Part shown: in pieces, positions 4,037-34,629 of the stretch
How the letters are laid out: every line of letters begins with the position of its first letter
How positions within the stretch are numbered: the first letter of the stretch is position 1
Source of the DNA: Salinivirgaceae bacterium
GTDB lineage: Bacteria; Bacteroidota; Bacteroidia; Bacteroidales; SZUA-534
Direction of reading: 5' to 3'
NCBI GenBank assembly: GCA_024405635.1
Contig: JAKSOL010000027.1
Span: 1-34,976, forward strand
Length of the DNA stretch: 34,976 bases
Notes under the pieces: generated by a model
What the model saw: the letters and a program-made list of their open reading frames with translations, nothing else
Database searches by the model: none
What the model was told of the DNA's origin: nothing
Translations under genes and position numbers: made by a program

Positions 4037-5677
4037 CTATTCCACTACAAGTTTCACTGTCTTTATTGTATCGTTTAAAATATCAAGGGTAACCACATAC
4101 ACACCAGAAGCCAAATGGGTATCTAATTGCACACTGCCCGATACTTCGTTTATATGGTATTGTGCCACTTGCACACCAGTCATATTTAGTATTGTTACGG
4201 TGATTGGCGACTGCACATCGGCTCCAACATTGAGCATTACCGACTGATTTGCTGAAATTGGATTTGGGTATAAACTAACTTGATTGGCGCTAATTGATAT
4301 GTGGGAAACCGACACTATTTGCGATGCTACCGTTGTGCCATCATAGTCGGTTTGCTCAAGGCGATAATAAACGGTGCCTTGTGGAGCGTCAAAGTCGGCA
4401 TATTTATAAGACATAACCGAGTTGGAGTTTCCTGCACCATCAAAAATTGCAATTTTCTGAAAATTGACACAATCGGTTGAGCGATATATAGTATAGTAAT
4501 CGTTGTTTGTTTCGGTTGCTGTTTGCCATTGCAATACAACTTTTCCATTGGCACTTGTTGCCGAAAAATCAAGCAATTCTATTGGCAGAGGGCGACTTGT
4601 AACAATGGGATTAAAATGTGTTATATTAAAACCTCCAGCGGCCAACTGATCCATACATACTTCGCCGCTACCATTGCTACAACGCAAATCATTAATCACA
4701 AGCATCGAGCCTTCGCCCGAAATTGTCCTTGTCCAATCAATTATTAAATCGTTGCCAACAGACAAGTCTCTGTTTATTGTGTATTGTCCATTATTTAAAA
4801 CCACATTGCCTGTTACATCAAGCGATGCGCCATCGGCTATAACAACATTATTTGGATTAACGAATTTGCAATCGCCTTCAACACTAAATTGCGCACCAGT
4901 GCCCATAGTCAAACTTGCGCCATTACCAATTGCCACATCACCAGCAAAGGCAACTGTTGAATTTGCATCAGCATTAATTGCAGTTCCTCCTGACATGTTT
5001 AGTGTCTCGCCCTCAAGTTCGCCTTGAATAGTAACAGAGCCACTTCCAGTTACGTTTATCGGTCCATTAACAATAGCTTTTGCTCCCGGATTAACTTGTA
5101 GTTGAGATGTATTTCCGCCATTAATTGTAAGGCTGTTGCAGGTGAATCCATTACTAGCAAAAATGCCAGCTGTTGATAAATAAACGTTATTTGCCTGCAA
5201 GCTACTTTGCGTACCAAGATAAAGGTTCATATGGTTTCCGCCAGAAAGACGTAAGTCGTTCTGAACCTCAAGCGAACCATTTATTCGTATTGGGCCAGAG
5301 CCACCTCGCAAATTGTTCGCAATAATGCTCGATCCGTATTCCGATTCAATATGAAGGTAGTCTTGACTTGGTACCGAAATATCGCCCGCAACATTGATTG
5401 TGATGCCTGCGCCTATAACTAAACAAAACAATCCGTCAATACTAACGTCTCTAGTTACGTTCAATGTATGAGGGTTGCCATCGGCTGACACTATATTAAA
5501 ATAAACAACATTACCCCAATGCGTCATAGACATTGAGTTTAATGTTAAATCGCTTGACAAACGCAATGTTGATTCGTTGGTAATATTTAGGCTTGAATTA
5601 GGACTTGGGGTTATATCGGCACAATAAGCCAATAAAACAAAGTACAATAATAGCGTAGTGATGAATAATCTTTTCAT
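4037..5677 (-). CDS. Secreted protein with T9SS type A C-terminal sorting domain; Gly/Asn-rich beta-solenoid-like passenger plus an Ig-like 'PLPIELLDF' domain
   Basis: Signal peptide; repeated short beta motifs (L.V.G.L.L.G); PLPIELLDF...LQWQTATETNNDYYTIYRS...YYRLEQTDYDG; CTD LYPNP...LASGVYVV...TVKLVVE. Confidence 0.85.
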   Translation of the reverse strand: MKRLFITTLLLYFVLLAYCADITPSPNSSLNITNESTLRLSSDLTLNSMSMTHWGNVVYFNIVSADGNPHTLNVTRDVSIDGLFCLVIGAGITINVAGDISVPSQDYLHIESEYGSSIIANNLRGGSGPIRINGSLEVQNDLRLSGGNHMNLYLGTQSSLQANNVYLSTAGIFASNGFTCNSLTINGGNTSQLQVNPGAKAIVNGPINVTGSGSVTIQGELEGETLNMSGGTAINADANSTVAFAGDVAIGNGASLTMGTGAQFSVEGDCKFVNPNNVVIADGASLDVTGNVVLNNGQYTINRDLSVGNDLIIDWTRTISGEGSMLVINDLRCSNGSGEVCMDQLAAGGFNITHFNPIVTSRPLPIELLDFSATSANGKVVLQWQTATETNNDYYTIYRSTDCVNFQKIAIFDGAGNSNSVMSYKYADFDAPQGTVYYRLEQTDYDGTTVASQIVSVSHISISANQVSLYPNPISANQSVMLNVGADVQSPITVTILNMTGVQVAQYHINEVSGSVQLDTHLASGVYVVTLDILNDTIKTVKLVVE

Positions 5678-8315: not shown

Positions 8316-9152
8316 ATGGAACTGTTTATTAATTGGAATCCAAACCCAATAGTTTTTCAACTAAAAATTCCAGAAGCAATACCATTAATAGGTGGCGATG
8401 TTTTAGCACCTCGTTGGTATGGCATGCTGTTTGCTTTGGCCATTGTAGTTGGCTATTGGATTATGGGCAAAGTGTTTAAGCGCGAAAAAAAGGACCCTGA
8501 AATTATGGACAACATGCTGGTTTATATGGTTTTGGGTACAATTGTCGGCGCACGAGTTGGGCATTGTTTGTTTTACGAACCTGCATATTATTTGTCGCAC
8601 CCAATTTCAATACTCAAAATTTGGGAAGGCGGACTTGCTAGTCATGGAGCAGGAATAGGCATACTGTTTAGCTTCTATCTTTTCTCGCGAAAATACAAGA
8701 TGGATTTCTTTTGGATTATGGACCGAATGGCAATGCTAATTGCACTTTCGGGCTTATTTATCCGCACAGGAAACCTAATAAATTCAGAAATTTGCGGCAA
8801 ACCAACCGATTTATCATTTGGATTTATTTTTGAAGCCTTGGGCGAAGATTTTGCTCGTCACCCATCACAATTATACGAGGCTGCCGGCTATAGCGTCATT
8901 TTTGTCATTTTGTTGCTTCTTTATGTTTACACCAATGCTGGCAATTTGCGCGGAATGTTGGTAGGCTTGGGTTTGGTGTTGGTATTTGGATTCCGAATAG
9001 CAATTGAGTTTACCAAAGAGGTTCAGGTTGATTTTGAAAAAGGAATGATACTAGATATGGGACAATGGTTAAGTGTTCCATTTGTGTTAGGTGGCATTGC
9101 CTTGATTTATTATTCATTAACCAACAGAAAAAAAGATGAAAAAGCTATTTAA
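8316..9152 (+). CDS. lgt: Prolipoprotein diacylglyceryl transferase
   Basis: RWYG, GARVGHCLFY, IWEGGLASHG, RTGNLINSEICG, RHPSQLYEA and MGQWLSVP motifs. Confidence 0.97.
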   Translation: MELFINWNPNPIVFQLKIPEAIPLIGGDVLAPRWYGMLFALAIVVGYWIMGKVFKREKKDPEIMDNMLVYMVLGTIVGARVGHCLFYEPAYYLSHPISILKIWEGGLASHGAGIGILFSFYLFSRKYKMDFFWIMDRMAMLIALSGLFIRTGNLINSEICGKPTDLSFGFIFEALGEDFARHPSQLYEAAGYSVIFVILLLLYVYTNAGNLRGMLVGLGLVLVFGFRIAIEFTKEVQVDFEKGMILDMGQWLSVPFVLGGIALIYYSLTNRKKDEKAI

Positions 9153-9753
9153 TATACTCGCTATCAGCAGTTTAATGCTACTTACCGCATGCAGTAAAGA
9201 CGATGATATTAAAGTAATAACACCAGGCGATTTCCTACCAGCCTACCCTCTTTCGTATTGGGACTACAGCGACGGTTCGCGCATTCTCACATCAAGCAAT
9301 TATGTGCACCATAGTTACCACGCTTCAACATCATCAAAAAACGAAACTCAAGAGTGTTTAGTTCCAATTTGGGACGGCAAATACTTATACAAATACAGCA
9401 TATATCAGCAATCGACAACAATGCCATTGCGCAAACTATTAAATGCCACAGGCTCAAACGCTTGGGTGGTTGAAGAAAACAATGGTGTAACTGTAAAACG
9501 AACCGAAACTCATCTTGACTCGTTGACAATTTCGTGGAAAAACAACACCGATACCACGTTCAAAGATGTGTATATGGTTACCGAACATCTTGGACACTTT
9601 GACTATAAAACCAAGTGGAGCATTCGCGAATACTACGCAAAATACGTTGGACTTATTAGGGTTGAAGTTAACAATCCTTACCAAGATGTAGCTACACCTG
9701 TTATACAAAAAGACTTGCGCTCTTACAGTATTAAATTCCCCGAAAACAACTAA
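9136..9753 (+). CDS. Hypothetical lipoprotein
   Basis: Lipobox LLTA-C followed by SKDDD; YYAKYVGLI near the C-terminus; overlaps the lgt stop. Confidence 0.75.
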   Translation: MKKLFNILAISSLMLLTACSKDDDIKVITPGDFLPAYPLSYWDYSDGSRILTSSNYVHHSYHASTSSKNETQECLVPIWDGKYLYKYSIYQQSTTMPLRKLLNATGSNAWVVEENNGVTVKRTETHLDSLTISWKNNTDTTFKDVYMVTEHLGHFDYKTKWSIREYYAKYVGLIRVEVNNPYQDVATPVIQKDLRSYSIKFPENN

Positions 9754-9754
9754 A

Positions 9755-10366
9755 ATGCACAGCTTCCCTTTTCGGTACACCGACCGAGTGGTTCTTTATC
9801 TTGAGAACAAAGAAACCGAAACGGATGCTCTTCGAAAAATTGAACATGCGCTTGGTTTACAACTAGATGCAACAACATCGGGTTGGCCTTTTGTGGGAAA
9901 AACAAGCATTGAAACCAACGTTAAAATTGATGCCATTTCAATTGTTGTTGTTTATAGCATAAACCTACGGGGCAACAACTTGGCACTATTAATATGCGTG
10001 CTAACTGGCTTATTTTTAGGAATTAACAATTTTAACACCATCACAACCATAATAACTCTGCTATCGGTTGTTGCATACATAGCAATGATTGTTATTCAAA
10101 ATGCACATGTAAAAAAGCTGATAATAGAAACACTGGGCCAACCTCAAATTGAAGGCGAAACAAGCATTTGGGACAAGCAAAAACGTTGGATGCAACAGCC
10201 CGAAGTTTGCCCAGCTTGCGGAACTCCGCGCAACGAATACAGCAACCGTTGTGTTGCTTGCGGAATAAAACTTCCACAAACAAAGCAAATTAAAAGCAAC
10301 GCAACCATTTGCAGTTCAAACAATTACAACATAACCTATCAATACAAAGAGCAATGCGAAAAATAG
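9755..10366 (+). CDS. Two-TM membrane protein with C-terminal zinc ribbon
   Basis: Two hydrophobic helices; CPACG...CVACG; starts 1 nt after the previous stop. Confidence 0.7.
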   Translation: MHSFPFRYTDRVVLYLENKETETDALRKIEHALGLQLDATTSGWPFVGKTSIETNVKIDAISIVVVYSINLRGNNLALLICVLTGLFLGINNFNTITTIITLLSVVAYIAMIVIQNAHVKKLIIETLGQPQIEGETSIWDKQKRWMQQPEVCPACGTPRNEYSNRCVACGIKLPQTKQIKSNATICSSNNYNITYQYKEQCEK

Positions 10367-10899
10367 CTGCAAACATCGTTTTTACAGGAGTTGGCGCCCC
10401 AATAAAAAATGGACATGTTGTGGTTGACGACAACGGATATATTATTGACGTTGTTGACTCGGGCGGTCAAATAGTTGAAATTGAAGGACTTGAGTATTTC
10501 AACGGGATATTAATTCCTGGACTTGTATTGGGATGCAAAAATGTTGAAGTAACCGAACAATTGAGCAAAGTGCTTTGGCGAATGGGAGTGCAAGCCATTG
10601 TTGGAAACAACATAAGTGCAACTACAAAGCTGCAAACTCAAGCCATTATAACCAACATGTCCGACGACAAACTAGTACAAATGCAACCAAACCAATACAA
10701 CTTTTTGCAACCTACTGATGGATACAATTTTGAACAATGGCTTAACAAACTTACCTCAGAGGCAGCAAAAAAATTAAACTTACAATTTTGCTTTGGTAGT
10801 TTTCAAAAAGGTGTAAAACCTGGCATTCTGCTGGTTTCGCCATTTAACTTTGCAACTAATTCACTAACAGCAGATTCGGTTGTAACAAGATTAGTGTAA
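10354..10899 (+). CDS. Short amidohydrolase-derived protein lacking the metal-binding HxH motif (181 aa from ATG 10354)
   Basis: N-terminus MRKIAANIVF...IKNGHVVVDDNGYI...NGILIPGLV and C-terminus LTSEAAKKL...GSFQKGVKPGILLV match the beta-sandwich ends of metal-dependent amidohydrolases, but the core is far shorter than usual. Confidence 0.65.
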   Translation: MRKIAANIVFTGVGAPIKNGHVVVDDNGYIIDVVDSGGQIVEIEGLEYFNGILIPGLVLGCKNVEVTEQLSKVLWRMGVQAIVGNNISATTKLQTQAIITNMSDDKLVQMQPNQYNFLQPTDGYNFEQWLNKLTSEAAKKLNLQFCFGSFQKGVKPGILLVSPFNFATNSLTADSVVTRLV

Positions 10900-11858
10900 T
10901 GGCCCAACAATACACCATATTATATAGTCCTTTAAATTGGGGATTAGGTCATGCAACTCGTTGTGTTCCGCTAATTAACAAAGCCATAACCGATGGCCAC
11001 AAGGTTGTAATAGCCACAAATGGTGCCGCACTTAATTATTTGCAAAACGAAATACAAAACGCACAATTTGAGCAACTTAATGGTTACAACATGCACTATG
11101 CTCGTTGGCCATTTTTGCCATTAGTAATAGCACTACAAGCGCCTTTACTTTTTTTGTCGTTGATTTTTGAACGAGTACAAACGTGCAAAATTGTTAAACA
11201 ACACAACGTTACACACATTGTGAGCGACAACCGATATGGCGTGCATTGCAAAAAATGCCACAACAGCATCATAACACATCAATTATACCTACCTCTACCC
11301 AAATGGCTAAAAGTTATACAACCAATAGTAAATGCCATTATTCAACTGATACTCAACAAATTTGACAGCATATTAGTTCCCGACTTAGCCGAAAACGAAA
11401 AAAGCCTAAGTGGCAAATTATCGCATGGCGGCAAACTAGACTCCAGAGTAAAATACATTGGACCGCAATCGCGATTCGTTAATGTAACCGAAAGTAAATC
11501 AAGCAGTTTCAACCCCGATGTATTAGTTGTGCTATCGGGCAAAAACGCACAAAACAAAAAGTTGATTAAATCGCTTTGCAAACAATACAAAAACAACGAA
11601 AAACAGTTGCTTATAGTTTGTGGCACTGCAACCGATTATAGTGCAAATTCAGCACGTAACATTCACATTATAAACTACCTACCAACCAACCAACTTGCTT
11701 ATCTTTTAAAACACACAAAAACAATAATCGTTAGGTCGGGCTACTCCACTGTTATGGATTTGTACACACTACAACGCACTCAAGGTATTATTTGGATACC
11801 ATTAAAAGGGCAATGGGAACAAGAGTATTTGTCTGAAAGACTAAAACAAAAAGCATAA
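10899..11858 (+). CDS. GT-B glycosyltransferase (MurG/GT28-like)
   Basis: YSPLNWGLGHATRC, IVSDNRYG, ITHQL, IVRSGYSTVMDL and IP.KGQWEQEYL; TAATG coupling to the previous gene. Confidence 0.88.
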   Translation: MAQQYTILYSPLNWGLGHATRCVPLINKAITDGHKVVIATNGAALNYLQNEIQNAQFEQLNGYNMHYARWPFLPLVIALQAPLLFLSLIFERVQTCKIVKQHNVTHIVSDNRYGVHCKKCHNSIITHQLYLPLPKWLKVIQPIVNAIIQLILNKFDSILVPDLAENEKSLSGKLSHGGKLDSRVKYIGPQSRFVNVTESKSSSFNPDVLVVLSGKNAQNKKLIKSLCKQYKNNEKQLLIVCGTATDYSANSARNIHIINYLPTNQLAYLLKHTKTIIVRSGYSTVMDLYTLQRTQGIIWIPLKGQWEQEYLSERLKQKA

Positions 11859-20211: not shown

Positions 20212-21141
20212 ATGAACGTTGTTATTAAGAACTTAACCCAAAAATACGGCAATCAATATGCAGTTGACAACTTGTCGTTTGAAGTTAAGACAGGCGAAAT
20301 TGTTGGATTTTTGGGACCAAATGGTGCAGGTAAAACAACCACAATGAAAGCCATAACAGGCTACATTGAACCTACCGATGGCGAAGTGTTTGTAGGCAAC
20401 ATTTCTGTAACCGAAAACCCAAACGAAACAAAACGCCACATTGGTTATCTGCCAGAGCACAATCCTTTGTATGTAGATATGCCAATAATCGACTACTTGC
20501 GCTATATGGCAGAGCTACAAGGCATTAGCAAAAATAAAATAACCGACCGTGTGCTCGAAATGGTTCATATTTGCGGACTTGAAGGCGAAAAACACAAACT
20601 TATTGGCGAACTTTCAAAAGGCTATCGCCAACGTGTTGGTCTAGCCCAAGCGCTTATTCACGACCCCGAAGTATTGATTCTTGACGAGCCAACCACAGGA
20701 CTCGATCCAAACCAAATATTTGAAATTAGAGAACTGATTAAACGCATAGGACGTGAAAAAACCGTCATTTTAAGTTCGCACATTTTAGCCGAAGTTGAAG
20801 CCACTTGCGACCGCATAATAATCATCAACCACGGCAAAATTGTAGCCAACGGCACAGCTAATCAACTACGCAAAGCTGAACATGGCAACGAAATTGTTCA
20901 AGTGTGCATTGAGGACGCCGACCGCAATGTGGTTTTCGAAAAATTACAGCAAATAAGTTCAATTGAGTTAGTTGACACAAACATTGACAACCCACAAATG
21001 TTTGAAGTTCAAGCAAAAGCAAATCAATCGTGCAAACGCGACATTTTTGCGCTTTGTGTGGCTCAAGGTTGGACTATTACCGAACTACACACCGTTGAAA
21101 CAAAACTTGAAGACGTGTTCCGCGACCTTACACTAAAATAA
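20212..21141 (+). CDS. gldA: ABC transporter ATP-binding protein, GldA-like
   Basis: Walker A GPNGAGKTT; GYLPEHNPLY; signature LSKGYRQRV; Walker B ILDEPT; SSHIL; LEDVF tail. Confidence 0.85.
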   Translation: MNVVIKNLTQKYGNQYAVDNLSFEVKTGEIVGFLGPNGAGKTTTMKAITGYIEPTDGEVFVGNISVTENPNETKRHIGYLPEHNPLYVDMPIIDYLRYMAELQGISKNKITDRVLEMVHICGLEGEKHKLIGELSKGYRQRVGLAQALIHDPEVLILDEPTTGLDPNQIFEIRELIKRIGREKTVILSSHILAEVEATCDRIIIINHGKIVANGTANQLRKAEHGNEIVQVCIEDADRNVVFEKLQQISSIELVDTNIDNPQMFEVQAKANQSCKRDIFALCVAQGWTITELHTVETKLEDVFRDLTLK

Positions 21142-21156
21142 CCTAACACACTGACA

Positions 21157-23364
21157 ATGAAACACGTATGGACTATTGCCCGCCGCGAATTCCAATCGTT
21201 TTTTGACTCACTTTCAGCCTATATTTTATTAGTTCTGTTTTTGAGTTTCACAGGCATTTTTACATGGATTTACGGCAACGATATATTTATGTACGGACAA
21301 GCATCGTTGCAAATGTTTTTCAACGTTGCATACATATCGCTCTTTTTGCTAATTCCAGCATTAACCATGAAATCGATTGCCGAAGAACGAAAAACCGGCA
21401 CCATTGAAATGCTACTAACAAAGCCAATAACAGTGTGGCAGTTATTGCTTGGCAAATACTTGGCAATACTGATGCTTGTTGCTGTGTGCCTGGCACTTAC
21501 ACTTCCCTACTACATTTCGGTTTCGTGCCTTGGAAACATTGATCATGGCGCTGTAATATGCGGATATATTGGACTTTTGCTTATGTGCAGCGCCTATATT
21601 GCAATAGGACTTTTTGCCAGCTCAATAACAGGAAATCAAATAGTTAGCTTTCTCATATCTATAAGCATTGGAATATTGTTCCACTTTATATTCGATATGA
21701 TGGGTGAACATTTTTCGGGTACTCTTGGGCACTTGGCAAACTCGCTTAATATGAACACCCATTTTGAAAGCATTGCTCGTGGGGTTATTGACTCAAAAGA
21801 CATTATTTACTTTATATCAATCACATTTGCAGCCATTTACGTTGCAAAAAATCAGATAAAACGCAACACATCAAAACTCAACACAGCATTAACACTGGCA
21901 ATTGTGGTTGCAATAAACATTGTAGGTTCATACGCGTTTTTTCGACTCGATTTTACAGGTGACAAACGCTACACACTCAGCAACGCCACTTTATCTATTT
22001 TAGAAAAAGTTGACGAACCTATTACAGTAAAAGCCTATTTTTCAGAAGATTTACCTGCCGAAGTAGCAAAAGGCAAGCAAGATTTTAAAGACTTGCTAAC
22101 AGAATATCACAGCACATCGAGCCACATGATTGAATTTGAGTTTATCAATCCAGCTAGCGACGATATAACAGAACAAGAGGCAATGGATTGTGGCATATTT
22201 CCCATAATGATAAACGTGCGCGAAAAAGACCAGATAAAACAACAAAAAGCATACATGGGCGCCGTTGTGATGAAAGGAAAAAAATCAGAAATAATACCAT
22301 TTGTACGCCCCAACATGTCGGTTGAATACGAACTATCGTCAGCCATACGCAAACTATCGCAAACCAACCGCCCTACTGTAGCCATACTACAAGGCCATGG
22401 CGAACCTTTGCCTGAATTTATGCCACAACTATTATCGGAACTCGAAGTGCTTAACAACATAACCACAGCAACTATTAATGGTAACATTGCAAACCTAAAC
22501 GGCATAAACACGTTGCTGATTATTGCACCAACCGATAGTATTCCGCAAGCCGATTTTGATGCAATTGACCAATTTATGGCAAATGGCGGACGCGTTGCTA
22601 TTGCTATCAATCGCGTAAACGTAAACCTTGACGAATTTGCTGGATTCAGCCAAAACACTGGACTTGAAACTTGGTTACAAACAAAAGACATTACCGTTGA
22701 CAACAAATTTGCAATAGATAGTCGTTGCGCAACCGTTGGCATACAACAGCAACAACCAAACGGCTTTACTACTAGCACTCAAATGATATTCCCCTACATT
22801 CCAATCATCACCCAATTTGCCGACAACGCTATTACAACCGGATTGGAACAAATTCAATTTCAGTTTGTTAGCCCAGTTGTTTACACTGGCGATTCACTTG
22901 CAACCTTCACCACACTTGTAACAACATCAAACCACGCGGCCACACTCAACGTACCACATTATATCGACATGCAAAAAGAGTGGACATTTGCCGATTTTCC
23001 TCTAGCCGAAGTACCTGTGGCTGGACTACTTGAAGGCAACATTGCTGGCGCAAATACCAAAATGGTAATTTTTGGCGATGGCGATTTTGTAATAAACGCA
23101 TCTCCTCGGCAAAAACTTATGCCCGATAATATCAGCCTTATGGCCAACGCAATCGACTACCTAACAGACGACACAGGTTTGATTGAACTTCGCACAAAAG
23201 GCATAACTTCGCGCCCGCTTGATGATGTTGACAATCAAAGTCGAACCATAATTAAATGGATTAACGTTTTGCTACCCATTGTGTTAGCAATTTTTATAGG
23301 CATACTTCGCAAACAACAACAACGCAACTTGCGCATTAAACGAATGGAGGAAGGCTATGTATAA
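21157..23364 (+). CDS. gldFG: Fused GldF (ABC-2 permease) - GldG (ABC auxiliary) protein
   Basis: N-terminal ~235 aa: TMKSIAEERKTGTIEMLLTKP, HFESIARGVID (GldF-like). Continues in frame into RLDFTGDKRYTLS, LQGHGE, GDGDF and NAIDYL...GLIELR (GldG-like). Confidence 0.88.
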   Translation: MKHVWTIARREFQSFFDSLSAYILLVLFLSFTGIFTWIYGNDIFMYGQASLQMFFNVAYISLFLLIPALTMKSIAEERKTGTIEMLLTKPITVWQLLLGKYLAILMLVAVCLALTLPYYISVSCLGNIDHGAVICGYIGLLLMCSAYIAIGLFASSITGNQIVSFLISISIGILFHFIFDMMGEHFSGTLGHLANSLNMNTHFESIARGVIDSKDIIYFISITFAAIYVAKNQIKRNTSKLNTALTLAIVVAINIVGSYAFFRLDFTGDKRYTLSNATLSILEKVDEPITVKAYFSEDLPAEVAKGKQDFKDLLTEYHSTSSHMIEFEFINPASDDITEQEAMDCGIFPIMINVREKDQIKQQKAYMGAVVMKGKKSEIIPFVRPNMSVEYELSSAIRKLSQTNRPTVAILQGHGEPLPEFMPQLLSELEVLNNITTATINGNIANLNGINTLLIIAPTDSIPQADFDAIDQFMANGGRVAIAINRVNVNLDEFAGFSQNTGLETWLQTKDITVDNKFAIDSRCATVGIQQQQPNGFTTSTQMIFPYIPIITQFADNAITTGLEQIQFQFVSPVVYTGDSLATFTTLVTTSNHAATLNVPHYIDMQKEWTFADFPLAEVPVAGLLEGNIAGANTKMVIFGDGDFVINASPRQKLMPDNISLMANAIDYLTDDTGLIELRTKGITSRPLDDVDNQSRTIIKWINVLLPIVLAIFIGILRKQQQRNLRIKRMEEGYV

Positions 23365-24277
23365 GAACAAACAATCGACCCGAACACTTACTCTTTTGTT
23401 AGCTGGAATAGTTTTAGTTTCAGTAATAATGATGGTATTAAGCCACCAAAGCGACCGATCGTACAAACGCCACGTTATTAAGACCAATGCCGAAAAAATA
23501 AGCCGTTTCAGCATTACACCAAGCAATGGCGACAGCACATTTCAAGTTATAAAAACCAAAAGCGGATGGGTTGTTCCAATGCCATGGGGAAACGTAGATG
23601 CAAGCGCCTTTAATGTTGAAAAACTACTGCGCTATCTCGATGGAGGAATAGCATCGGACCGTTTAGTTGCCAAACATCCAATGCAGTGGGCCGACTTTGG
23701 GGTGTCTGATAGCCTTGCAACACACGTTATTGCATACCGCAACAACAAAGAGGTTGCCAACTTTTATTGCGGAGGTTTTGAGTTTGAGCCACAAACTCGC
23801 CGCACATGGTGCTACATTCGTTTGGCCGATAATGGCGAAGTTTACTCGGTTGATGGCATTTTAAGCATGTCGCTAAACCGCACACAAGCCGACTTTAGAA
23901 ACAACGACCTTTTAAGTGTGAGCCCTAAAAGCATCAGCAAAATTGAAGTTGAACAAGCCGACTCGTCATACACAATTGAGAGAAATGGCAACTCATTGTT
24001 AATGAACGGCATAGCATGCGATTCAGTTAAGGCCAGCAAATTCATTCATCAAGTATCGAAACTTACCACTCACCTTTTTGCCGATAGCGCTCGCAACCAA
24101 CTTAAACAACCAATTGCAAAAGCCTCAATAACAGCCAATAACAACGTTGTAACAATAACGGCATACAAGGTTAACAATGAAATTGTACTTGAATCGTCGG
24201 CAAACAATGGCAATTTATTTTCTGACGAAAGATTGAACCAAATTTTGTTTACCAAAAAGCAGAATTTGCTACCGTAG
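23357..24277 (+). CDS. DUF4340 family membrane-anchored protein
   Basis: N-terminal TM; WADFGV...; YIRL...VYSV...FRNNDL two-repeat organisation; usual position after GldG-like genes. Confidence 0.75.
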   Translation: MYKNKQSTRTLTLLLAGIVLVSVIMMVLSHQSDRSYKRHVIKTNAEKISRFSITPSNGDSTFQVIKTKSGWVVPMPWGNVDASAFNVEKLLRYLDGGIASDRLVAKHPMQWADFGVSDSLATHVIAYRNNKEVANFYCGGFEFEPQTRRTWCYIRLADNGEVYSVDGILSMSLNRTQADFRNNDLLSVSPKSISKIEVEQADSSYTIERNGNSLLMNGIACDSVKASKFIHQVSKLTTHLFADSARNQLKQPIAKASITANNNVVTITAYKVNNEIVLESSANNGNLFSDERLNQILFTKKQNLLP

Positions 24278-29832: not shown

Positions 29833-29840
29833 TATGTTTG
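29833..29840 (+). promoter_or_regulatory. Candidate -7 box (TATGTTTG) for the pilin-like operon
   Basis: Exact TAnnTTTG about 70 nt upstream of the ATG; a near-match TATATTGC at 29852 is an alternative. Confidence 0.4.
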
Positions 29841-29908: not shown

Positions 29909-30484
29909 ATGAGAAAACTTTTCCTTTCAGTACTTGCATTGGGCTTTGCTGCTGCAGTTTCAGCTCAATCAATTGTTGACAACGCTATTATCCCAGTGTC
30001 TGTTAACGTAAACACCATTATGCGTATGAACGTAACCTCTGGTGGTAACATTGAGTTTGCTTTCAACACAATTAATGACTATACAAATGGCATTGTAAAT
30101 TCATCGCGCTACGACACTAAATTCACAGTAGCATCATCTGTAAAATTTGATGTAACAATGGTTACAGAAGATGCTAATTTAGTTGGTTCAGACAACTCAA
30201 GCAACACAATAAATTTGGATTTAGTTGGTTTTAAAATAACAAATTCAGGAACTGCAACACCTTCAACTTTTCAAGAAAACTGGACAAATCTTGGTGCTGC
30301 AACAGGAACAGGAATTAGCATAGTTCAAGCCGAAGGTGGCGATGCAAGCGCAAATGTATACACAATCAATTGGGCTTGCGGTGTTCCTTCTCAAGGAGCT
30401 GGCACAGGCAACACAATGTTGGCTGCAAATGCAAAACCAGACCGCTACTCTACCAACATTTTCTTGACTCTTACTGCACAATAA
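29909..30484 (+). CDS. Secreted beta-rich protein, putative major pilin/fimbrial subunit
   Basis: SPI signal (..AAAVSA|Q); Thr/Asn/Gly/Ser-rich; alternating hydrophobic N-terminal strand AIIPVSVNV; C-terminal strand YSTNIFLTLTAQ; followed by a hairpin. The pilin call is inference. Confidence 0.6.
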   Translation: MRKLFLSVLALGFAAAVSAQSIVDNAIIPVSVNVNTIMRMNVTSGGNIEFAFNTINDYTNGIVNSSRYDTKFTVASSVKFDVTMVTEDANLVGSDNSSNTINLDLVGFKITNSGTATPSTFQENWTNLGAATGTGISIVQAEGGDASANVYTINWACGVPSQGAGTGNTMLAANAKPDRYSTNIFLTLTAQ

Positions 30485-30513
30485 TAATTGTCGCAAACTA
30501 TATTTATCAAATA

Positions 30514-30545
30514 ACAAAAGGCCAAACTTAGGTTTGGCTTTTTGT
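30514..30545 (+). terminator. Intra-operon stem-loop / partial terminator
   Basis: ACAAAAGGCCAAAC-ttag-GTTTGGCTTTTTGT. Confidence 0.8.
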
Positions 30546-30574
30546 CGTTTGTAACACCTACAAAACCAAACGAA

Positions 30575-31078
30575 GTGAATAGCGGAGTAAAACTTGTTGT
30601 TTTATTATTGTTACTTACTGTTAACCAAGCATTTGCACAAAGTCAAAGTTTGCGAATAAAGGTTACTAGTGGCAACAATTTAGAGTTCAACTTTAACTCG
30701 TATGCAAAACTGAAAAACGGCATACAATACGACGATTTCACAACAATAAAGGTTTCGTACTCCGATGTTGACGAAAACGGAGATTATACAAGCACTGGAT
30801 GGCGATTATCAGTAAACGCATTATCCGACGACTTGATACCTGACTTTGGAACAAGACATTTATCTCTAGACATAATCGAAATGAAATTCGTTCACGATTT
30901 TGACGTTAAACAATTTCCTTTATCTAGAGCAGAAAGCATAGTTGACGACGTTCACCAAAATCCAACAAACGACTACACATACAAAGTGTCGTATAGTTGT
31001 GGCATCAACGGAGAAATGATGAATGTTATAAGCGATAATTTTTCAACCGATATAATGTTTACTGTAACAGTCCCCTAA
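30575..31078 (+). CDS. Secreted paralog of the upstream protein, putative minor/tip pilin (GTG at 30575 preferred)
   Basis: Signal peptide ..NQAFA|Q. LRIKVTSGNNLEFNFNS...NGI aligns with MRMNVTSGGNIEFAFNT...NGI; shared CG and D..ST.I..T.T C-terminus. The track's TTG at 30542 lies inside the hairpin. Confidence 0.6.
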   Translation: MNSGVKLVVLLLLLTVNQAFAQSQSLRIKVTSGNNLEFNFNSYAKLKNGIQYDDFTTIKVSYSDVDENGDYTSTGWRLSVNALSDDLIPDFGTRHLSLDIIEMKFVHDFDVKQFPLSRAESIVDDVHQNPTNDYTYKVSYSCGINGEMMNVISDNFSTDIMFTVTVP

Positions 31079-34000
31079 TGAAGCCTGTTGCAAAAGCACG
31101 ACATATTCTACTAACAATTTTGTGCAGCTTGTTGTTTGCACAAACAGCTTGGTCGCAATTTTATTTTTACGAAGATGCGCACGACCAAGTTGAAGTAAAT
31201 TTTTTGCGCAAAAAAATTGAGACATTTTCAAACAATGCATTCTTTAATGCGGTAAAAATTGTCAACCCCACATCACAAAGACTCACATTTATAGCCAACT
31301 TCAGTTATCCTGCAGGTTGGACATTTATGGGCGACCAAGGACAACGATACACAATTGAGCCAAACGACTCAATAATAATTCCATTCCGTGCATCGGCCCC
31401 AAAAACCACACGCGGCGAAATTGGCTACTCAATTGTAGTGGCATTAACCGACCTACGAGGCAATGTTTTTAAAAACGCATATAGTTTTGTAAACATTCCA
31501 AAAGTGCAAGAGATATCGTTTGCACCCGAAAACCGAACAATATTTATCGACCAATATAAACGCGACGCCACAGTTGGTTTGCAATTTGCCAACACTGGCA
31601 ACACCGAAGAGGTTTTTCACATCGACTATCACCTACCCGATGCCTTAACAACGCGAGGAGAACACGAAGGCCTGTATGTTGACGAAATAAGTCTAAAACC
31701 ATACCACGACACAGTTATTCATTTGCCGGTAACCCTTCGCGACCGATATTCAGATGACAATCAAACATATCATCGAATTCAGGTGAATGTTTTAAATGCC
31801 GACACCACATTAAAATCGACCATTTGGGCTCGCGAACTTCGCAACCATTACTACAATCCTATACCGACATCGTACACCATGCTTGGTGTTGAATTAACCG
31901 CACGTAACCTTATTGCAGAGAGCGCACCTTCGCTTTCGGCCGACGTGTGGGGCAACTTTTTGCTAAAACGTGCAGGCACAATTTACTTTCGCGCCATGGC
32001 CAATAGCATCGAGAGCGCTGATTGGAAAAGAATGTGGCGATATGGCCGATACGAACTGCGCTACGATTACAAAAAAACGCACCTATGGTTAGGCGACATT
32101 CAGCAAGTATATGCGCTGAACATATATGGTCGTGGAGGTTTTTTATCACAAAAATTTAACAACAACGAGATTACTGCCATTGCGACAAAATCAATGTATT
32201 CCGATATATTAGATTATGGCGCATCATACAAATACAAGAACAGCAAGTTTGGTGCTAGCTTTGGAGGTGCATACGAACAAGACAAAGACAACCAACGAAA
32301 CATAGTAGGTGTATTTGTTGAAGGTAATTACAGACACAAAACGTTGGGAAACATTGACGCTACACTAAACCTAACCAACGCAATGTGGCAAACAGGCAAC
32401 AACATCACACAATTTGGACTAGGTTTTGATGCTCGATACTCAAACACCTTTGCAAAAAAATTGATTGTGTTTGCACAAACACACTACGGACAGCCTCAAT
32501 ACTTTGGCCGATACGCAGGTCGATTGGAACTAACAAGCCAACTGCGCTACCTTTTGGCGCAAGACAAATACCTATTTGCATCATACAACCGCACAAATAA
32601 CGGCACTCCCCGATACGTTGGCGACTCAATGCTACGTAGGTCTATTGTAAACTACGACGAGATAAAACTCACATATAACAAAAACATTACCAAGCATTTA
32701 TATTATTACGTAGGCGGAATTAGCGAGTCGCGACATGGCGACAACTTCAACTCAACCTACCCAAATTTGCTATTCACAACTCGAAATGTTTTTGCAACCG
32801 CAATGGTGCGCTTTCGCAAAGATCTTAACCTAATAAACCTAAACATAAAAGGTGGACCAAACTTTGTTACAGAACATCCCTTTGGACTCGACACTCTGCC
32901 ACACAACAAAGCATGGTTCTCGTTAGTTGCAAATGCTAGTTGGCGCTCGCAATATGGCGGCTTGTACCTAAACTACTACCACGGACCAAACTCGTTGAGC
33001 CAACAATTTACTCATTACATACAAAAAGGTTATCCTCGCACAATACGTTTGATGCCTTACCTTGACATTTACCTATTTCCACGCTACGTTCAGTACCAAA
33101 ACAAAACAAGCCTATCGTACGACATTGGCAACAAAACCACACGCGTAAGTTTAAGCAACGACCTTACTTTCTACCTAGGAAAAACAACCCAATTTATAAT
33201 AACCCACACATGGAATTTCTCATCGTCATACGATGTAATAACCGAAGAACAATATCGGTACAAAGGCTCGTATGTTGAAGCTCGTTTGCGCAAAGACTTC
33301 AACTTTGACCAACCTCGATACAAATTGTGCGACCTTGAAATAACATTCTACAAAGACTTGAATGGTAACCACCGCAAAGACGAAGACGAACCGGGCGTGA
33401 AAGATGTGCTATTCAACATTATACAAAACGAAGGCGAAGGAATCGAAAACGACCAAGAAGCATTGTCGGCATTTATGGCCATGGAACTATTGTCGGACAT
33501 GAACGGAACAGTGTCGTACAAAAACATTCCAAGTGGATTTTATATTATTGAATATCAACCTATTGGCGAAGTAGTTGGTGCATACACAACCGAGACCAAC
33601 CGCCAAAGCATATACATTAACAAGAACACTAAACTTGAAATACCTTTTGCCGAAAACAACAAGATATTTGGTCGCATTGTGATGAACCGCTCGCGCCTAT
33701 CAAATCTTGGCCAAGTTGACATTTCGAACATAAAAGTAACAGCCGAAGATACTCGCGGCAAAATTCACAGCACGTTAACCGACAAAGACGGAAACTTTAC
33801 ACTTTACGTACCAAGTGTTGACAAGTACAACGTAAAGGTGAACAACATTTTCTACGAAAACTTTGACCTTGAACAAAACACATTTGAGGTTCAACTTAAC
33901 GGCTACCGACAATTTGAAGTAAACTTTGTGTTTAACGAAAAACGCCGAAAAATAAACTTCACAACCACCCAAGAATACGGACTTAACGAATCGGACAATG

Positions 34001-34629
34001 GCATTGAAATGATTCGCCGAACCGCAATGACTGGTACAATTAAAGATGCAACTACCCTACAACCAATTGCCGCAAATATTAAGATAATAAACGGACGAGG
34101 CAAAGTAATTGCCACCGCAGCTTGCAATGCAAAAACTGGATTTTACAACATTGAATTCATAGCAGGAAACGACTACACCATTGAAGTTGAGGCCGACGGA
34201 TATTGGTTCTATAGCGAAAAACTACGTGTTGACCAAGCAGTAACCTTCTCAAATGACGAAAAGGATGTAATGCTTAAACAAATTATTAACGGAGCAACCA
34301 TTCCTATGAACAACCTTAACTTTGCCTCGCGAAGTACCGAAATACCTGCTGTTGCATTCCCTGAACTTGAACGTTTGCTAAAAGTATTGCGACAAAACCC
34401 ATCGGTTAAAATTGCAGTTTACGGCCATGCTGACGACATTGAAATTCGCGAAACAAACGTTGACGTAGCCCAAGAACGAGCTCGTATAGTTGCTTCATAC
34501 CTAATTGCAAACGGATACAGCCGAATAAAGTACCTTGGTTACTCAAACACCCGACCAATAGCCGACAACGACACTGAAGAAGGTCGAGCACAAAACCGTC
34601 GTGTTGAGATTGTGGTTACCGACAAATAA
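31078..34629 (+). CDS. Large outer-membrane protein: 2 Ig-like domains + predicted beta-barrel + SdrD-B-like + carboxypeptidase-regulatory-like domains + C-terminal OmpA domain (usher-like)
   Basis: Signal peptide; PAGW...IEPNDSIIIPF and ANTGN Ig/NEW3-like domains; ~480 aa of amphipathic aromatic-rich strands; FYKDLNGNHRKDEDEPGV; TLTDKDGNFTLYVP; OmpA motifs NLNF...VYGHADD...ERA..V..YL...PIADNDTEEGRAQNRRVEI. TAATG-coupled to the previous gene. Confidence 0.75.
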   Translation: MKPVAKARHILLTILCSLLFAQTAWSQFYFYEDAHDQVEVNFLRKKIETFSNNAFFNAVKIVNPTSQRLTFIANFSYPAGWTFMGDQGQRYTIEPNDSIIIPFRASAPKTTRGEIGYSIVVALTDLRGNVFKNAYSFVNIPKVQEISFAPENRTIFIDQYKRDATVGLQFANTGNTEEVFHIDYHLPDALTTRGEHEGLYVDEISLKPYHDTVIHLPVTLRDRYSDDNQTYHRIQVNVLNADTTLKSTIWARELRNHYYNPIPTSYTMLGVELTARNLIAESAPSLSADVWGNFLLKRAGTIYFRAMANSIESADWKRMWRYGRYELRYDYKKTHLWLGDIQQVYALNIYGRGGFLSQKFNNNEITAIATKSMYSDILDYGASYKYKNSKFGASFGGAYEQDKDNQRNIVGVFVEGNYRHKTLGNIDATLNLTNAMWQTGNNITQFGLGFDARYSNTFAKKLIVFAQTHYGQPQYFGRYAGRLELTSQLRYLLAQDKYLFASYNRTNNGTPRYVGDSMLRRSIVNYDEIKLTYNKNITKHLYYYVGGISESRHGDNFNSTYPNLLFTTRNVFATAMVRFRKDLNLINLNIKGGPNFVTEHPFGLDTLPHNKAWFSLVANASWRSQYGGLYLNYYHGPNSLSQQFTHYIQKGYPRTIRLMPYLDIYLFPRYVQYQNKTSLSYDIGNKTTRVSLSNDLTFYLGKTTQFIITHTWNFSSSYDVITEEQYRYKGSYVEARLRKDFNFDQPRYKLCDLEITFYKDLNGNHRKDEDEPGVKDVLFNIIQNEGEGIENDQEALSAFMAMELLSDMNGTVSYKNIPSGFYIIEYQPIGEVVGAYTTETNRQSIYINKNTKLEIPFAENNKIFGRIVMNRSRLSNLGQVDISNIKVTAEDTRGKIHSTLTDKDGNFTLYVPSVDKYNVKVNNIFYENFDLEQNTFEVQLNGYRQFEVNFVFNEKRRKINFTTTQEYGLNESDNGIEMIRRTAMTGTIKDATTLQPIAANIKIINGRGKVIATAACNAKTGFYNIEFIAGNDYTIEVEADGYWFYSEKLRVDQAVTFSNDEKDVMLKQIINGATIPMNNLNFASRSTEIPAVAFPELERLLKVLRQNPSVKIAVYGHADDIEIRETNVDVAQERARIVASYLIANGYSRIKYLGYSNTRPIADNDTEEGRAQNRRVEIVVTDK

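Follow-up and report, generated by a model that had tools for sequence, protein, structure and literature searches.

The usher of a classical chaperone-usher pilus is a 24-strand barrel with a plug domain inserted in it and has no OmpA anchor; the first, distal subunit of these fibres (FimH, PapG) only accepts a donor strand, and in the pap and fim operons a hairpin follows the gene for the major subunit. The Bacteroidota are credited with type V pili, which are surface fibres formed by strand exchange from protease-processed lipoprotein precursors and without an usher, and with surface filaments that depend on the T9SS (type IX secretion system), and to our knowledge they are not credited with pili of the chaperone-usher type. 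Here we describe three neighbouring genes, A, B and C, from a member of this phylum, lying towards the end of a 34,976-nucleotide stretch of DNA from a Salinivirgaceae bacterium (positions 1 to 34,976 of contig JAKSOL010000027.1, assembly GCA_024405635.1; the whole stretch is called the window below). We consider it probable that A-B-C forms the structural core of a chaperone-usher-like fibre of the Bacteroidota, held together by donor-strand exchange and representing a new variant of chaperone-usher-type assembly.

Two further described systems bear closely on this locus. The first is the Elr/WxL pilus, for which a preprint of October 2026 (Sleutel et al.) shows a DUF916 protein, ElrE, acting as the donor-strand chaperone of WxL subunits (ElrD) that carry N-terminal donor strands; the same preprint gives the system as found in Bacillota only, in a screen of 4,698 genera (10.64898/2026.10.17.759780). 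The second is TLP-1a/b (PDB 9IKJ/9IKK), 8-nm fibrils recovered by CryoSeek cryo-electron microscopy of pond water. As set out in that paper, TLP-1 polymerises by insertion of an N-terminal strand into the immunoglobulin-like (Ig-like) fold of another protomer, the donor strand is disordered in monomer predictions, the closest predicted structure comes from a Flavobacteriales bacterium, and the authors did not trace the source organism or its machinery (PMC11494351). The accessible part of a later preprint from the same group holds nothing further on the origin of TLP-1 (10.1101/2025.09.30.679562).

The A-B-C cassette and the candidate chaperone D

A, B and C follow one another on the same strand (Table 1). 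An earlier note on this DNA, made from the letters alone, had described three co-oriented genes for secreted proteins, the first two being small paralogs with signals for signal peptidase I and not lipoprotein signals, with a hairpin after the first gene and translational coupling of the 1183-residue third, and on all of these points our analysis agrees with it. The open reading frames (ORFs) and their leaders are as described. BLASTP shows B to be a distant paralog of A, with 24% identity across 166 columns (E 7e-7), and the A-family profile recovers B in the genome at E 3.6e-4. The frame of B is open from the TTG, and the later GTG gives the protein a normal signal peptide; the B stop codon TAA and the C start codon ATG share one base (TAATG, 31076-31080). 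Signal peptides were assigned by reading the sequence, without a predictor, and have ends of the signal-peptidase-I type in A (VSA/Q), B (AFA/Q) and C (AWS/Q). Bacteroidota favour Gln at +1, and it occupies this position in 98% of A-family members (Q20) and invariably in B and C; the same reading gave no conserved lipobox cysteine near any of the three cleavage sites. A type V pilus was ruled out because A and B lack a lipobox by this reading, and T9SS cargo because no sorting domain (Por_Secre_tail and relatives) matches A, B or C at E<=1, so the earlier statement that the subunits have neither a lipobox nor a T9SS C-terminal domain still stands.

A search of 5.8 billion proteins detected 59 homologs of A. 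None of them carries a Pfam family, all are unnamed or 'hypothetical' save one evident automatic mislabel, and their named sources are metagenome-assembled genomes of Salinivirgaceae, Marinilabiliales or Tenuifilaceae. The WxL (PF13731), SCPU (PF05229), DUF4402 (PF14352) and Fimbrial families match 0 of 57 A-family members at E<=1, and A and B themselves give nothing meaningful in Pfam or NCBIfam. The AlphaFold2 model of A, built from a 57-sequence alignment, has a predicted local distance difference test score (pLDDT) of 92.4. When it was compared with the PDB by Foldseek, TLP-1b came first (E 2.3e-6) and TLP-1a second (E 5.3e-6), followed by CfaB (E 2.8e-4), FimF/G, SafA, Csu, FimA, TasA and archaeal fibres; EcpA pilins are also among the structural matches. 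VIA-align likewise placed TLP-1b on top (Z 11.1, root-mean-square deviation (rmsd) 2.5, 153 residues aligned), the next row being the CfaE pilin domain at Z 7.1 and then TasA (7.0), the FimH pilin domain (6.4) and Csu (6.3), with archaeal cannulae (Z 6.4) and bundling pili (Z 5.9) further matches. Judged by this model, A is a new sequence family with a pilin-type Ig-like fold and a putative major fibre subunit, and the incomplete, pilin-like Ig fold suggested in the earlier note is supported by a free N-terminal strand and by the CfaB, Fim, Csu, Saf and EcpA matches. A feature search of the ESM Atlas, taken as a source of leads only, gave SCPU (0.94), WxL (0.91) and DUF4402 (0.90) as the nearest named clusters, together with a Bacteroidota cluster automatically named 'putative WxL domain-containing protein' (TM 0.79 to A), again a lead only.

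At its N-terminus mature A has an extension that equals the core of the protein in conservation (A26 96%, I28 98%, P29 100%, V32 95%, N35 93%, I37 96%). Positions 28, 30, 32 and 34 are strictly hydrophobic with polar residues between them, and residues 20-37 have no secondary structure in the monomer model. A conserved and amphipathic extension that is nevertheless unstructured in a model of the monomer is the signature of a strand that pairs within another subunit. To gauge the length of this extension we measured how far the invariant Gly of the first core strand lies from the predicted start of the mature protein. This distance is 25 residues in 51 of 57 A-family members (range 24-30); across 66 orthologs of B the median is 11, with 55 of them falling between 8 and 14, and some of the longer B distances reflect a crude cleavage rule that chooses an earlier Gln. 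Absence of the extension thus appears, from the sequences, to be a family trait of B, common to nearly all orthologs. Lacking the extension, B can accept a strand but cannot donate one. Its expected place is therefore an end of the fibre, and it is a putative tip or initiator subunit.

To see how the cassette is conserved, relatives of A were sought in one genome per species across 185,579 species, which gave 162 stretches, and the best 80 loci were kept. By label nearly all of these are Bacteroidota (Bacteroidales, Salinivirgaceae, Paludibacter and the like), with a few bins labelled otherwise. A C-like gene lies downstream of A in every one of the 68 loci with at least 2500 nt of downstream sequence, matched by its N-terminal 750 residues in 66 and by the middle region only in two, and the start of C is visible in 4 of the 12 loci with less. 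Between A and the point where the match to C begins lie 567-1501 nt (median 730), and in 69 of 70 loci this gap is filled by a single open frame of the size of B. In an even sample of 401 genomes of the phylum, two are matched by the A profile, namely this organism (G000) and G135, and the same two are matched by the N-terminal part of C. The A-B-C arrangement is not due to chance, because it recurs in every related locus in which it could be checked, and the co-occurrence of the three genes that had been anticipated is thus observed.

The hairpin behind A is a shared feature too. The 80 nt past the A stop codon have a minimum free energy (MFE) of -23.8 kcal/mol (z -6.0 against shuffles), and when the corresponding region was scored in 80 sources the median MFE was -22.9 and the median z -4.75, with a hairpin of at least 5 bp in 57 of the 80. 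This stem-loop is a putative attenuator, partial terminator or stabiliser of the mRNA; a terminator scan lists it on the minus strand only. There is no enrichment of promoter sites of the sigma-70 type (13 found against 13.9 expected), which is what one would anticipate in this phylum. The motif TATGTTTG occurs at 29833-29840 of the window, 69 nt upstream of the A start, and resembles the Bacteroides -7 promoter consensus TAnnTTTG.

Where no other number is given, neighbours upstream of A were counted over the 43 of the 80 loci whose upstream flank reaches 6.9 kb. The gene for a 650-residue protein with TPR and SpoIIE (PP2C phosphatase) domains directly precedes A, about 180 nt away and in the same orientation, in 50 of all 80 loci and in 37 of these 43, and a SiaC-family phosphoprotein is found in 20 loci (15 of the 43); the pair suggests control of the fibre genes by partner switching. 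In G000 the best homolog of the TPR-SpoIIE protein is on another contig (C5:42466-44271), has 34% identity and is accompanied by many paralogs.

Protein C is put together from several parts (Table 1). Pfam recognises an OmpA domain (PF00691) at residues 1082-1174 (55.7 bits, cut-off 27.2) and CarboxypepD_reg at 984-1051 (45 bits, cut-off 32.3), with SdrD_B (758-828) and CarbopepD_reg_2 (894-950) below threshold, and assigns nothing to residues 1-750; NCBIfam models for the CHU_0125 family (E 1.5e-16) and PorE (E 1.2e-12) match the C-terminal part below their cut-offs. In the AlphaFold2 model, Ig-like strands at 39-139 (pLDDT about 70) are followed by residues 142-267 at pLDDT below 50, then by 26-28 consecutive long antiparallel strands at 269-741 (strand pLDDT 70-84; 24-28 by DSSP count), beta-sandwiches at 750-1057 and finally the OmpA domain. 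Ig domains on both sides of a long beta region, as the earlier note had it, are thus what the model contains. Residues 31-145 match domains of the macroglobulin type (Z 11.8, rmsd 2.8-3.0), and the OmpA domain has structural matches at Z 14-15 (rmsd 1.8-3.3). The first hit of the barrel by Foldseek is FimD (E 6.6e-11 over about 840 columns), FimD and PapC spanning the range 6.6e-11 to 8e-8, with TonB-dependent receptors at about 1e-6 and LptD and MtrB also below the ushers. By VIA-align, MtrB comes first (Z 17.6, 423 aligned, 10% identity, rmsd 5.8), before a model of LptD (15.0), PapC (14.9), the FimD pore (14.1) and the PapC pore (14.0). Both pores align over about 350 residues, and the alignment of full-length PapC (Z 14.9, rmsd 13.2) covers residues 265-1060 of the model, extending past the barrel into the C-terminal domains. 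In our reading the barrel of C is very large, with about 26 strands, and its geometry is not enough on its own to prove usher ancestry; C is a putative usher-like platform for assembly and secretion in the outer membrane. The even number of strands would leave both termini of C in the periplasm, which is consistent with its peptidoglycan-binding end.

Two other identities were considered for C. It does not qualify as a TonB-dependent receptor, having no match to a plug or TonB-box family and weaker Foldseek scores to these receptors than to ushers, nor as a classical usher homolog, for which there is no sequence support. When residues 1-760 were searched against 1.84 billion cluster representatives, 220 of these matched at E<=1e-3; of the 150 listed, most have 900-1250 residues. 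The two C homologs with a source name are called 'flagellar motor protein MotB' and 'OmpA-like', and homologs of A are labelled 'hypothetical protein', much as the earlier note had guessed of automated annotation. Clusters close to residues 28-760 of C in the ESM Atlas, all of them leads only, comprise proteins of 760-980 residues labelled 'COG1470', SdrD_B or CarboxypepD_reg (scores 0.86-0.89) from Gemmatimonadota, Synergistota and Bacteroidota, and an unnamed 643-residue cluster from Elusimicrobiota (0.90). These clusters hint that the barrel family reaches beyond the Bacteroidota.

A fourth gene, D, which is absent from the window, emerged when the flanks of the 80 A loci were clustered. 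It encodes a two-domain protein of 265-290 residues, secreted by our reading, and lies on the strand opposite to A within about 7 kb upstream in 32 of the 43 loci. Of the 11 loci whose neighbourhoods lack D, ten could be followed up in whole genomes, and each of the ten has exactly one D gene elsewhere. D is therefore present in all 44 A-bearing genomes tested (32, these 10, G000 and G135), against 41 of 401 in the phylum sample. The single D gene of G000 (E 7e-61) is on a 217-kb contig, C12, with housekeeping genes on both sides, whereas in G135 one operon holds, in order, a C-like gene (975 residues, no OmpA end), a D-like gene, an A-like gene with the extension and a B-like gene without it. 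A secreted protein of about 390 residues with MORN_2 repeats is encoded directly after D in 36 of 40 loci carrying both, and likewise in G000 (L086:8134-9306, minus strand, contig C12).

Affinities of D to known families are remote. Scans of 34 members against Pfam gave sub-threshold matches to fn3_5 (31 members), Cep192_D6 (27), WxLIP_PGBD/DUF916 (26, counted at E<=0.1), Motile_Sperm (MSP; 26) and PapD_N (PF00345; 6, all sub-threshold, best E 1.8e-4), and DUF3324 (PF11797) is not among the 25 listed of the 39 families found. For WxLIP_PGBD (PF06030; cut-off 27.3 bits) the D of G000 scores 23.5 bits and a homolog from G027 passes at 27.8, and several other D homologs have a precomputed PF06030 match. 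The D profile aligns nearly end to end (profile positions 36-262) with the solved WxLIP1 of E. faecium (EfmWxLIP1; E 0.004), and with the chaperone FaeE at E 0.83, and one source names a D homolog 'P pilus assembly chaperone PapD'. As the aligned D proteins end, by reading, in a polar EGTQIxIxV(E/D) tail with no hydrophobic helix, D would lack a membrane helix at its C-terminus and is expected to be a soluble periplasmic protein. D is likely a periplasmic chaperone, which would serve the subunits by donor-strand complementation.

The association of these genes extends beyond close relatives of A. We surveyed 24 D loci from 23 other genomes of the phylum sample (E<=1e-7, with 18 weaker places left aside), scanning them with hidden Markov models (HMMs) built in this analysis. 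A C-family gene is present in 16 of the 24, and in 15 of these 16 it adjoins D or is one gene away; genes of the A/B family occur in 8 of the 24, up to six in tandem and in the order pilin(s)-D-C, often followed by a 477-residue protein that also matches the pilin HMM and may be a two-domain tip adhesin. Three to six tandem pilin-family genes for proteins of 180 residues precede D and C at L105:4669-14022, L106, L102 and L108 (genomes G271, G211, G027 and G147). At nine further D loci we read, on the flanks of D and C, small ORFs for secreted proteins whose N-termini are similar. By hhalign, homology between C and the barrel of G027 extends across 827 columns (probability 97.6%, E 2.8e-12); a 993-residue protein of G024 is missed by hhalign of the 11-sequence alignment of C (E 0.26) and matched at 7.7e-12 by a 116-sequence HMM. 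Between the A profile and a pilin of G027 the hhalign match is only suggestive (probability 52%, E 1.4e-4). Members of the C family end in OmpA in the window, in SPOR in G024 (L103:8609-11587) and in no detected peptidoglycan module in G135 and G027, from which it appears that the cell-wall tether is interchangeable.

Some D loci look different. In four small genomes (2.1-2.7 Mb; L112, L113, L117 and L120) the D match has no detected C-family or pilin-family neighbour; an ORF matching the D HMM is present in L112, L113 and L120, and the L117 match was not recovered as an ORF. At L119:4118-11820 and L122:5798-11978, four small secreted proteins precede a D-like gene, which is followed by a protein of 1491 or 994 residues, respectively, without a match to the C-family HMM. 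L119 and L122 may hold a cluster of this kind in a more diverged form.

A possible assembly route and its alternatives

If A-B-C is indeed the core of a chaperone-usher-like fibre, the system could work as follows. A, B and C would be exported by Sec and cut by signal peptidase I, to judge from their leaders. A would be left with an incomplete Ig-like fold, and, as its fold and conservation suggest, its 18-residue amphipathic strand would fill the groove of a neighbouring subunit. B, accepting a strand without donating one, would occupy one end of the fibre, which by analogy with FimH and PapG would be the distal tip and the first part to be incorporated. D would hold the subunits in the periplasm by donor-strand complementation until they reach C, whose barrel of about 26 strands would be wide enough for a folded subunit, whose periplasmic Ig-like domains on both sides may dock incoming subunits and whose OmpA domain would fix the machine to the peptidoglycan. 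Much A and little B and C would be made as a result of the hairpin that follows A, of a start codon other than ATG in B and of the overlap between B and C. Such a system appears to follow chaperone-usher logic whilst each of its parts is new or remotely related in sequence. The separate fibre-assembly pathway proposed in the earlier note is in this way supported, with the chaperone-like fourth gene having lain outside that note's view. We likewise found no published description of the Bacteroidota cassette in the full-text literature, in line with the note's remark that it knew of no characterisation, subscription journals and supplements being outside the coverage of our search.

A number of results weigh against this interpretation. 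At the level of the subunit, the A profile finds no TLP-1 chain among PDB sequences at E<=10 (one chance hit apart), so the relationship between A and TLP-1 is one of fold; identity is 12-16%, and mature A has 172 residues where TLP-1 has about 237. In TLP-1, moreover, the strand donor is subunit n+4 (PMC11494351), which would imply a multi-start tubule and is harder to fit with a single chain passing through one pore. With regard to C, the model is modest (mean pLDDT 59.7 from an 11-sequence alignment), VIA-align fits it best to two 26-strand barrels that are not ushers, MtrB and LptD, and other large barrels score close behind (TonB-dependent receptors 13.7-14.5, BtuB 13.7). The secondary-structure listing of the barrel has no plug-like insert, the only helices being short ones at 316-322 and 640-648. 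The usher-like barrel with a plug that the earlier note expected has accordingly held up in part: a large transmembrane barrel is modelled and FimD and PapC are its best Foldseek matches, but no plug is evident and MtrB and LptD fit slightly better in VIA-align. In sequence, Usher (PF00577) does not match C at E<=1, and phmmer of residues 1-760 against PDB sequences returned no usher, only chance flagellin matches at E about 0.4. A six-frame search of the 99.78%-complete genome gave no match to PF00577 and a genome-wide search none to PapD_N, both of which match in the E. coli control. Finally, D is on a different contig from A-B-C in G000, its link to known chaperones consists of sub-threshold or marginal scores, and 8 of the 24 wider loci have a D-family gene with no detectable C neighbour.

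The need for a chaperone and an usher-like catalyst is what a first alternative questions. A and B might make a matrix fibre that assembles by itself, as is reported for TasA and archaeal donor-strand fibres, with C serving as a secretion pore or wall-tethered anchor and D belonging to another process. TasA, archaeal cannulae and bundling pili are indeed among the matches of A (Z 7.0, 6.4 and 5.9), D is unlinked from A-B-C in G000, and the OmpA anchor of C is absent from classical ushers. Against this, subunits with an open groove must cross the periplasm in a diderm cell, and D goes with the other genes: it accompanies A in 44 of 44 genomes as against 41 of 401 in the phylum sample, stands between C and A in the G135 operon and directly precedes C-family genes in 15 of the 24 wider loci. 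We regard a self-assembling fibre as unlikely for these reasons.

It might equally be asked whether there is a fibre at all. C could be an OmpA-family protein of the envelope-integrity or porin type, and A and B small beta-sandwich proteins, accessory or cargo, that remain monomers in the periplasm or at the cell surface. The above-threshold families on C are OmpA and CarboxypepD_reg only, the sub-cut-off NCBIfam matches at its end (CHU_0125, PorE) are to OmpA-like integrity models, Ig-like folds are common, and VIA-align Z values of 5-7 are in the range that the tool calls unspecific. The TLP-1b match of A, however, leads the next row by 4 Z units and extends over the entire domain; an alternating, unstructured extension that is conserved in A and absent from B has no reason to exist in a monomeric protein; and in the wider family as many as six subunit genes stand in tandem ahead of D and C. 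These points make an arrangement without a fibre improbable. That C is an MtrB-like sheath permanently enclosing A and/or B in a fixed complex across the outer membrane, as its best structural match (MtrB, Z 17.6 over 423 aligned residues) might suggest, is highly improbable, given that this match has 10% identity and rmsd 5.8 on a modest-confidence model with LptD and the ushers within 3 Z units of it, that A has a pilin fold and not that of a sheathed partner such as MtrA, which is a decahaem cytochrome, and that no cytochrome or other cargo gene is conserved in the A loci.

The reading as a chaperone-usher-like fibre can be taken further, to a proposal that we offer as a speculation with somewhat less than an even chance of being right. 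A, B, C and D would then constitute an unrecognised fibre pathway spread through the Bacteroidota, in which D shares its ancestry with DUF916 and not with PapD, the barrel of about 26 strands with its OmpA or SPOR tether is an independently evolved usher, TLP-1 fibrils are among the products, and related barrels may be found in Gemmatimonadota, Elusimicrobiota and Synergistota. If this is the case, the WxL-type chaperone-pilin module is not confined to Bacillota and has a diderm form with an outer-membrane barrel of its own. The D family is present in 41 of the 401 sampled genomes of the phylum, mostly beside C-family barrels. For the Bacteroidota, the cassette would add a donor-strand-exchange pathway in which the subunits and the outer-membrane platform are both novel in sequence and the partner is PapD/WxLIP-like, and it provides a testable candidate for the kind of organism and machinery behind the TLP-1 fibrils. 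Surveys of adhesins in animal-gut Bacteroidota miss A, B and C because these are annotated as hypothetical or as OmpA/MotB-like.

The window and its other genes

The positions of the cassette and its parts are collected in Table 1. The genome, G000, is an assembly of 36 contigs with a total of 2.66 Mb, and only 347 bases separate C from the contig end. Upstream of A the window has genes for two M16 peptidases and a GNAT acetyltransferase. DNA nearly identical to the window stretch is present in animal-gut metagenomes. Contigs of an RNA library (run X4, at least 99% identity) cover pieces of C (31115-31571, 32922-33489 and 34338-34597), the 3' end of B and neighbouring genes, and none lies on A; as X4 consists of assembled contigs that may include DNA, it shows neither expression nor silence and does not allow the genes to be ranked.

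Table 1. Features of the A-B-C cassette and their positions in the window
Feature	Position	Strand	Description or basis
Gene A	29909-30484	+	ORF, 191-residue precursor
Signal peptide of A	29909-29965	+	Residues 1-19, cleavage by reading
N-terminal extension of mature A, putative donor strand	29966-30019	+	Residues 20-37, conservation and model
Stem-loop 3' of A	30521-30538	+	7-bp stem, 4-nt loop, downstream T-run
Gene B	30542-31078 (TTG start, 178 residues) or 30575-31078 (GTG start, 167 residues)	+	ORF
Gene C	31078-34629	+	ORF, 1183 residues
C, two predicted periplasmic N-terminal Ig-like domains	31168-31863	+	Residues ~31-262; AlphaFold2, first acceptable, second poor
C, predicted large transmembrane beta-barrel, ~26 strands	31861-33312	+	Residues ~262-745; AlphaFold2, VIA-align, Foldseek
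C, three predicted periplasmic Ig-like/prealbumin-like domains	33325-34257	+	Residues ~750-1060; Pfam, AlphaFold2
C, OmpA-type peptidoglycan-binding domain	34300-34626	+	Residues 1075-1183; Pfam, structural matches

Other genes of the window are of interest in their own right. A restriction endonuclease of the GmrSD type, whose target is modified DNA, is encoded on the minus strand at 1243-2988. Also on the minus strand, at 4037-5677, is a gene for a 546-residue protein with a T9SS C-terminal sorting domain, from which the organism probably has a type IX secretion system. Immediately after lgt, at 9136-11858, are four consecutive co-oriented ORFs (205, 203, 196 and 319 residues) for which Pfam gives nothing at E<=1e-5. 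Three adjoining genes at 20212-24277 encode an ABC ATPase, a fused ABC-2 permease/ABC_transp_aux protein and a DUF4340 protein, an arrangement that resembles the GldA/GldF/GldG gliding-motility transporter of Bacteroidota.

Comparison with known fibre systems

The type V pili (FimA/Mfa1) and T9SS surface proteins share their phylum with the cassette, but A and B differ from type V pilins in their signal-peptidase-I ends and in having no lipobox. MtrB and LptD resemble C in being the best geometric fits to residues 262-745 by VIA-align (Z 17.6 and 15.0), a likeness that probably reflects the size of the barrel; identity is only 6-10%, and they have no domain context, operon partners or function in common with C.

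The comparison with TLP-1 is closer. It is the best fold match of A, the N-terminal strand is unstructured in the monomer prediction of both, and, according to the TLP-1 paper, its closest predicted structure is from the same phylum as A (PMC11494351). Its differences from A in identity and length have been given above. With the WxL/Elr pilus the cassette shares, in D, a protein whose nearest approach to a sequence relative is the DUF916 chaperone, and also subunits with an N-terminal donor strand, which in A is putative (10.64898/2026.10.17.759780). Unlike ElrE, which is membrane-anchored and has the DUF916/DUF3324 composition, D is without a C-terminal membrane helix; unlike the subunits of WxL pili, A has no WxL Pfam match (0/57) and there is no sortase or LPxTG anchor; and the system has an outer-membrane barrel, which would be impossible in a monoderm.

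Chaperone-usher pili (FimA/FimH-FimC-FimD, PapA/PapG-PapD-PapC, CfaB, CsuA/B) remain the most extensive parallel. Like them, the cassette has a subunit of this fold class in A, with a donor-strand-like extension at the N-terminus, and one subunit, B, without it; a hairpin after the gene for the putative major subunit; in the model of C, a barrel of very large size flanked on either side by periplasmic beta-sandwich domains; a two-domain partner, D, with what sub-threshold scores suggest is a PapD-like fold; and, in the wider family, the order pilin(s)-chaperone-barrel. Unlike them, it matches neither Usher (PF00577), nor PapD_N at threshold, nor the pilin families; its barrel is fitted better by 26-strand barrels than by the 24-strand ushers and has no evident plug; C ends in three Ig-like domains and a peptidoglycan anchor, OmpA here and SPOR elsewhere, which ushers do not; and, where the chaperone-usher pili compared here are those of Proteobacteria, this system belongs to the Bacteroidota, with its chaperone-like protein unlinked in G000.

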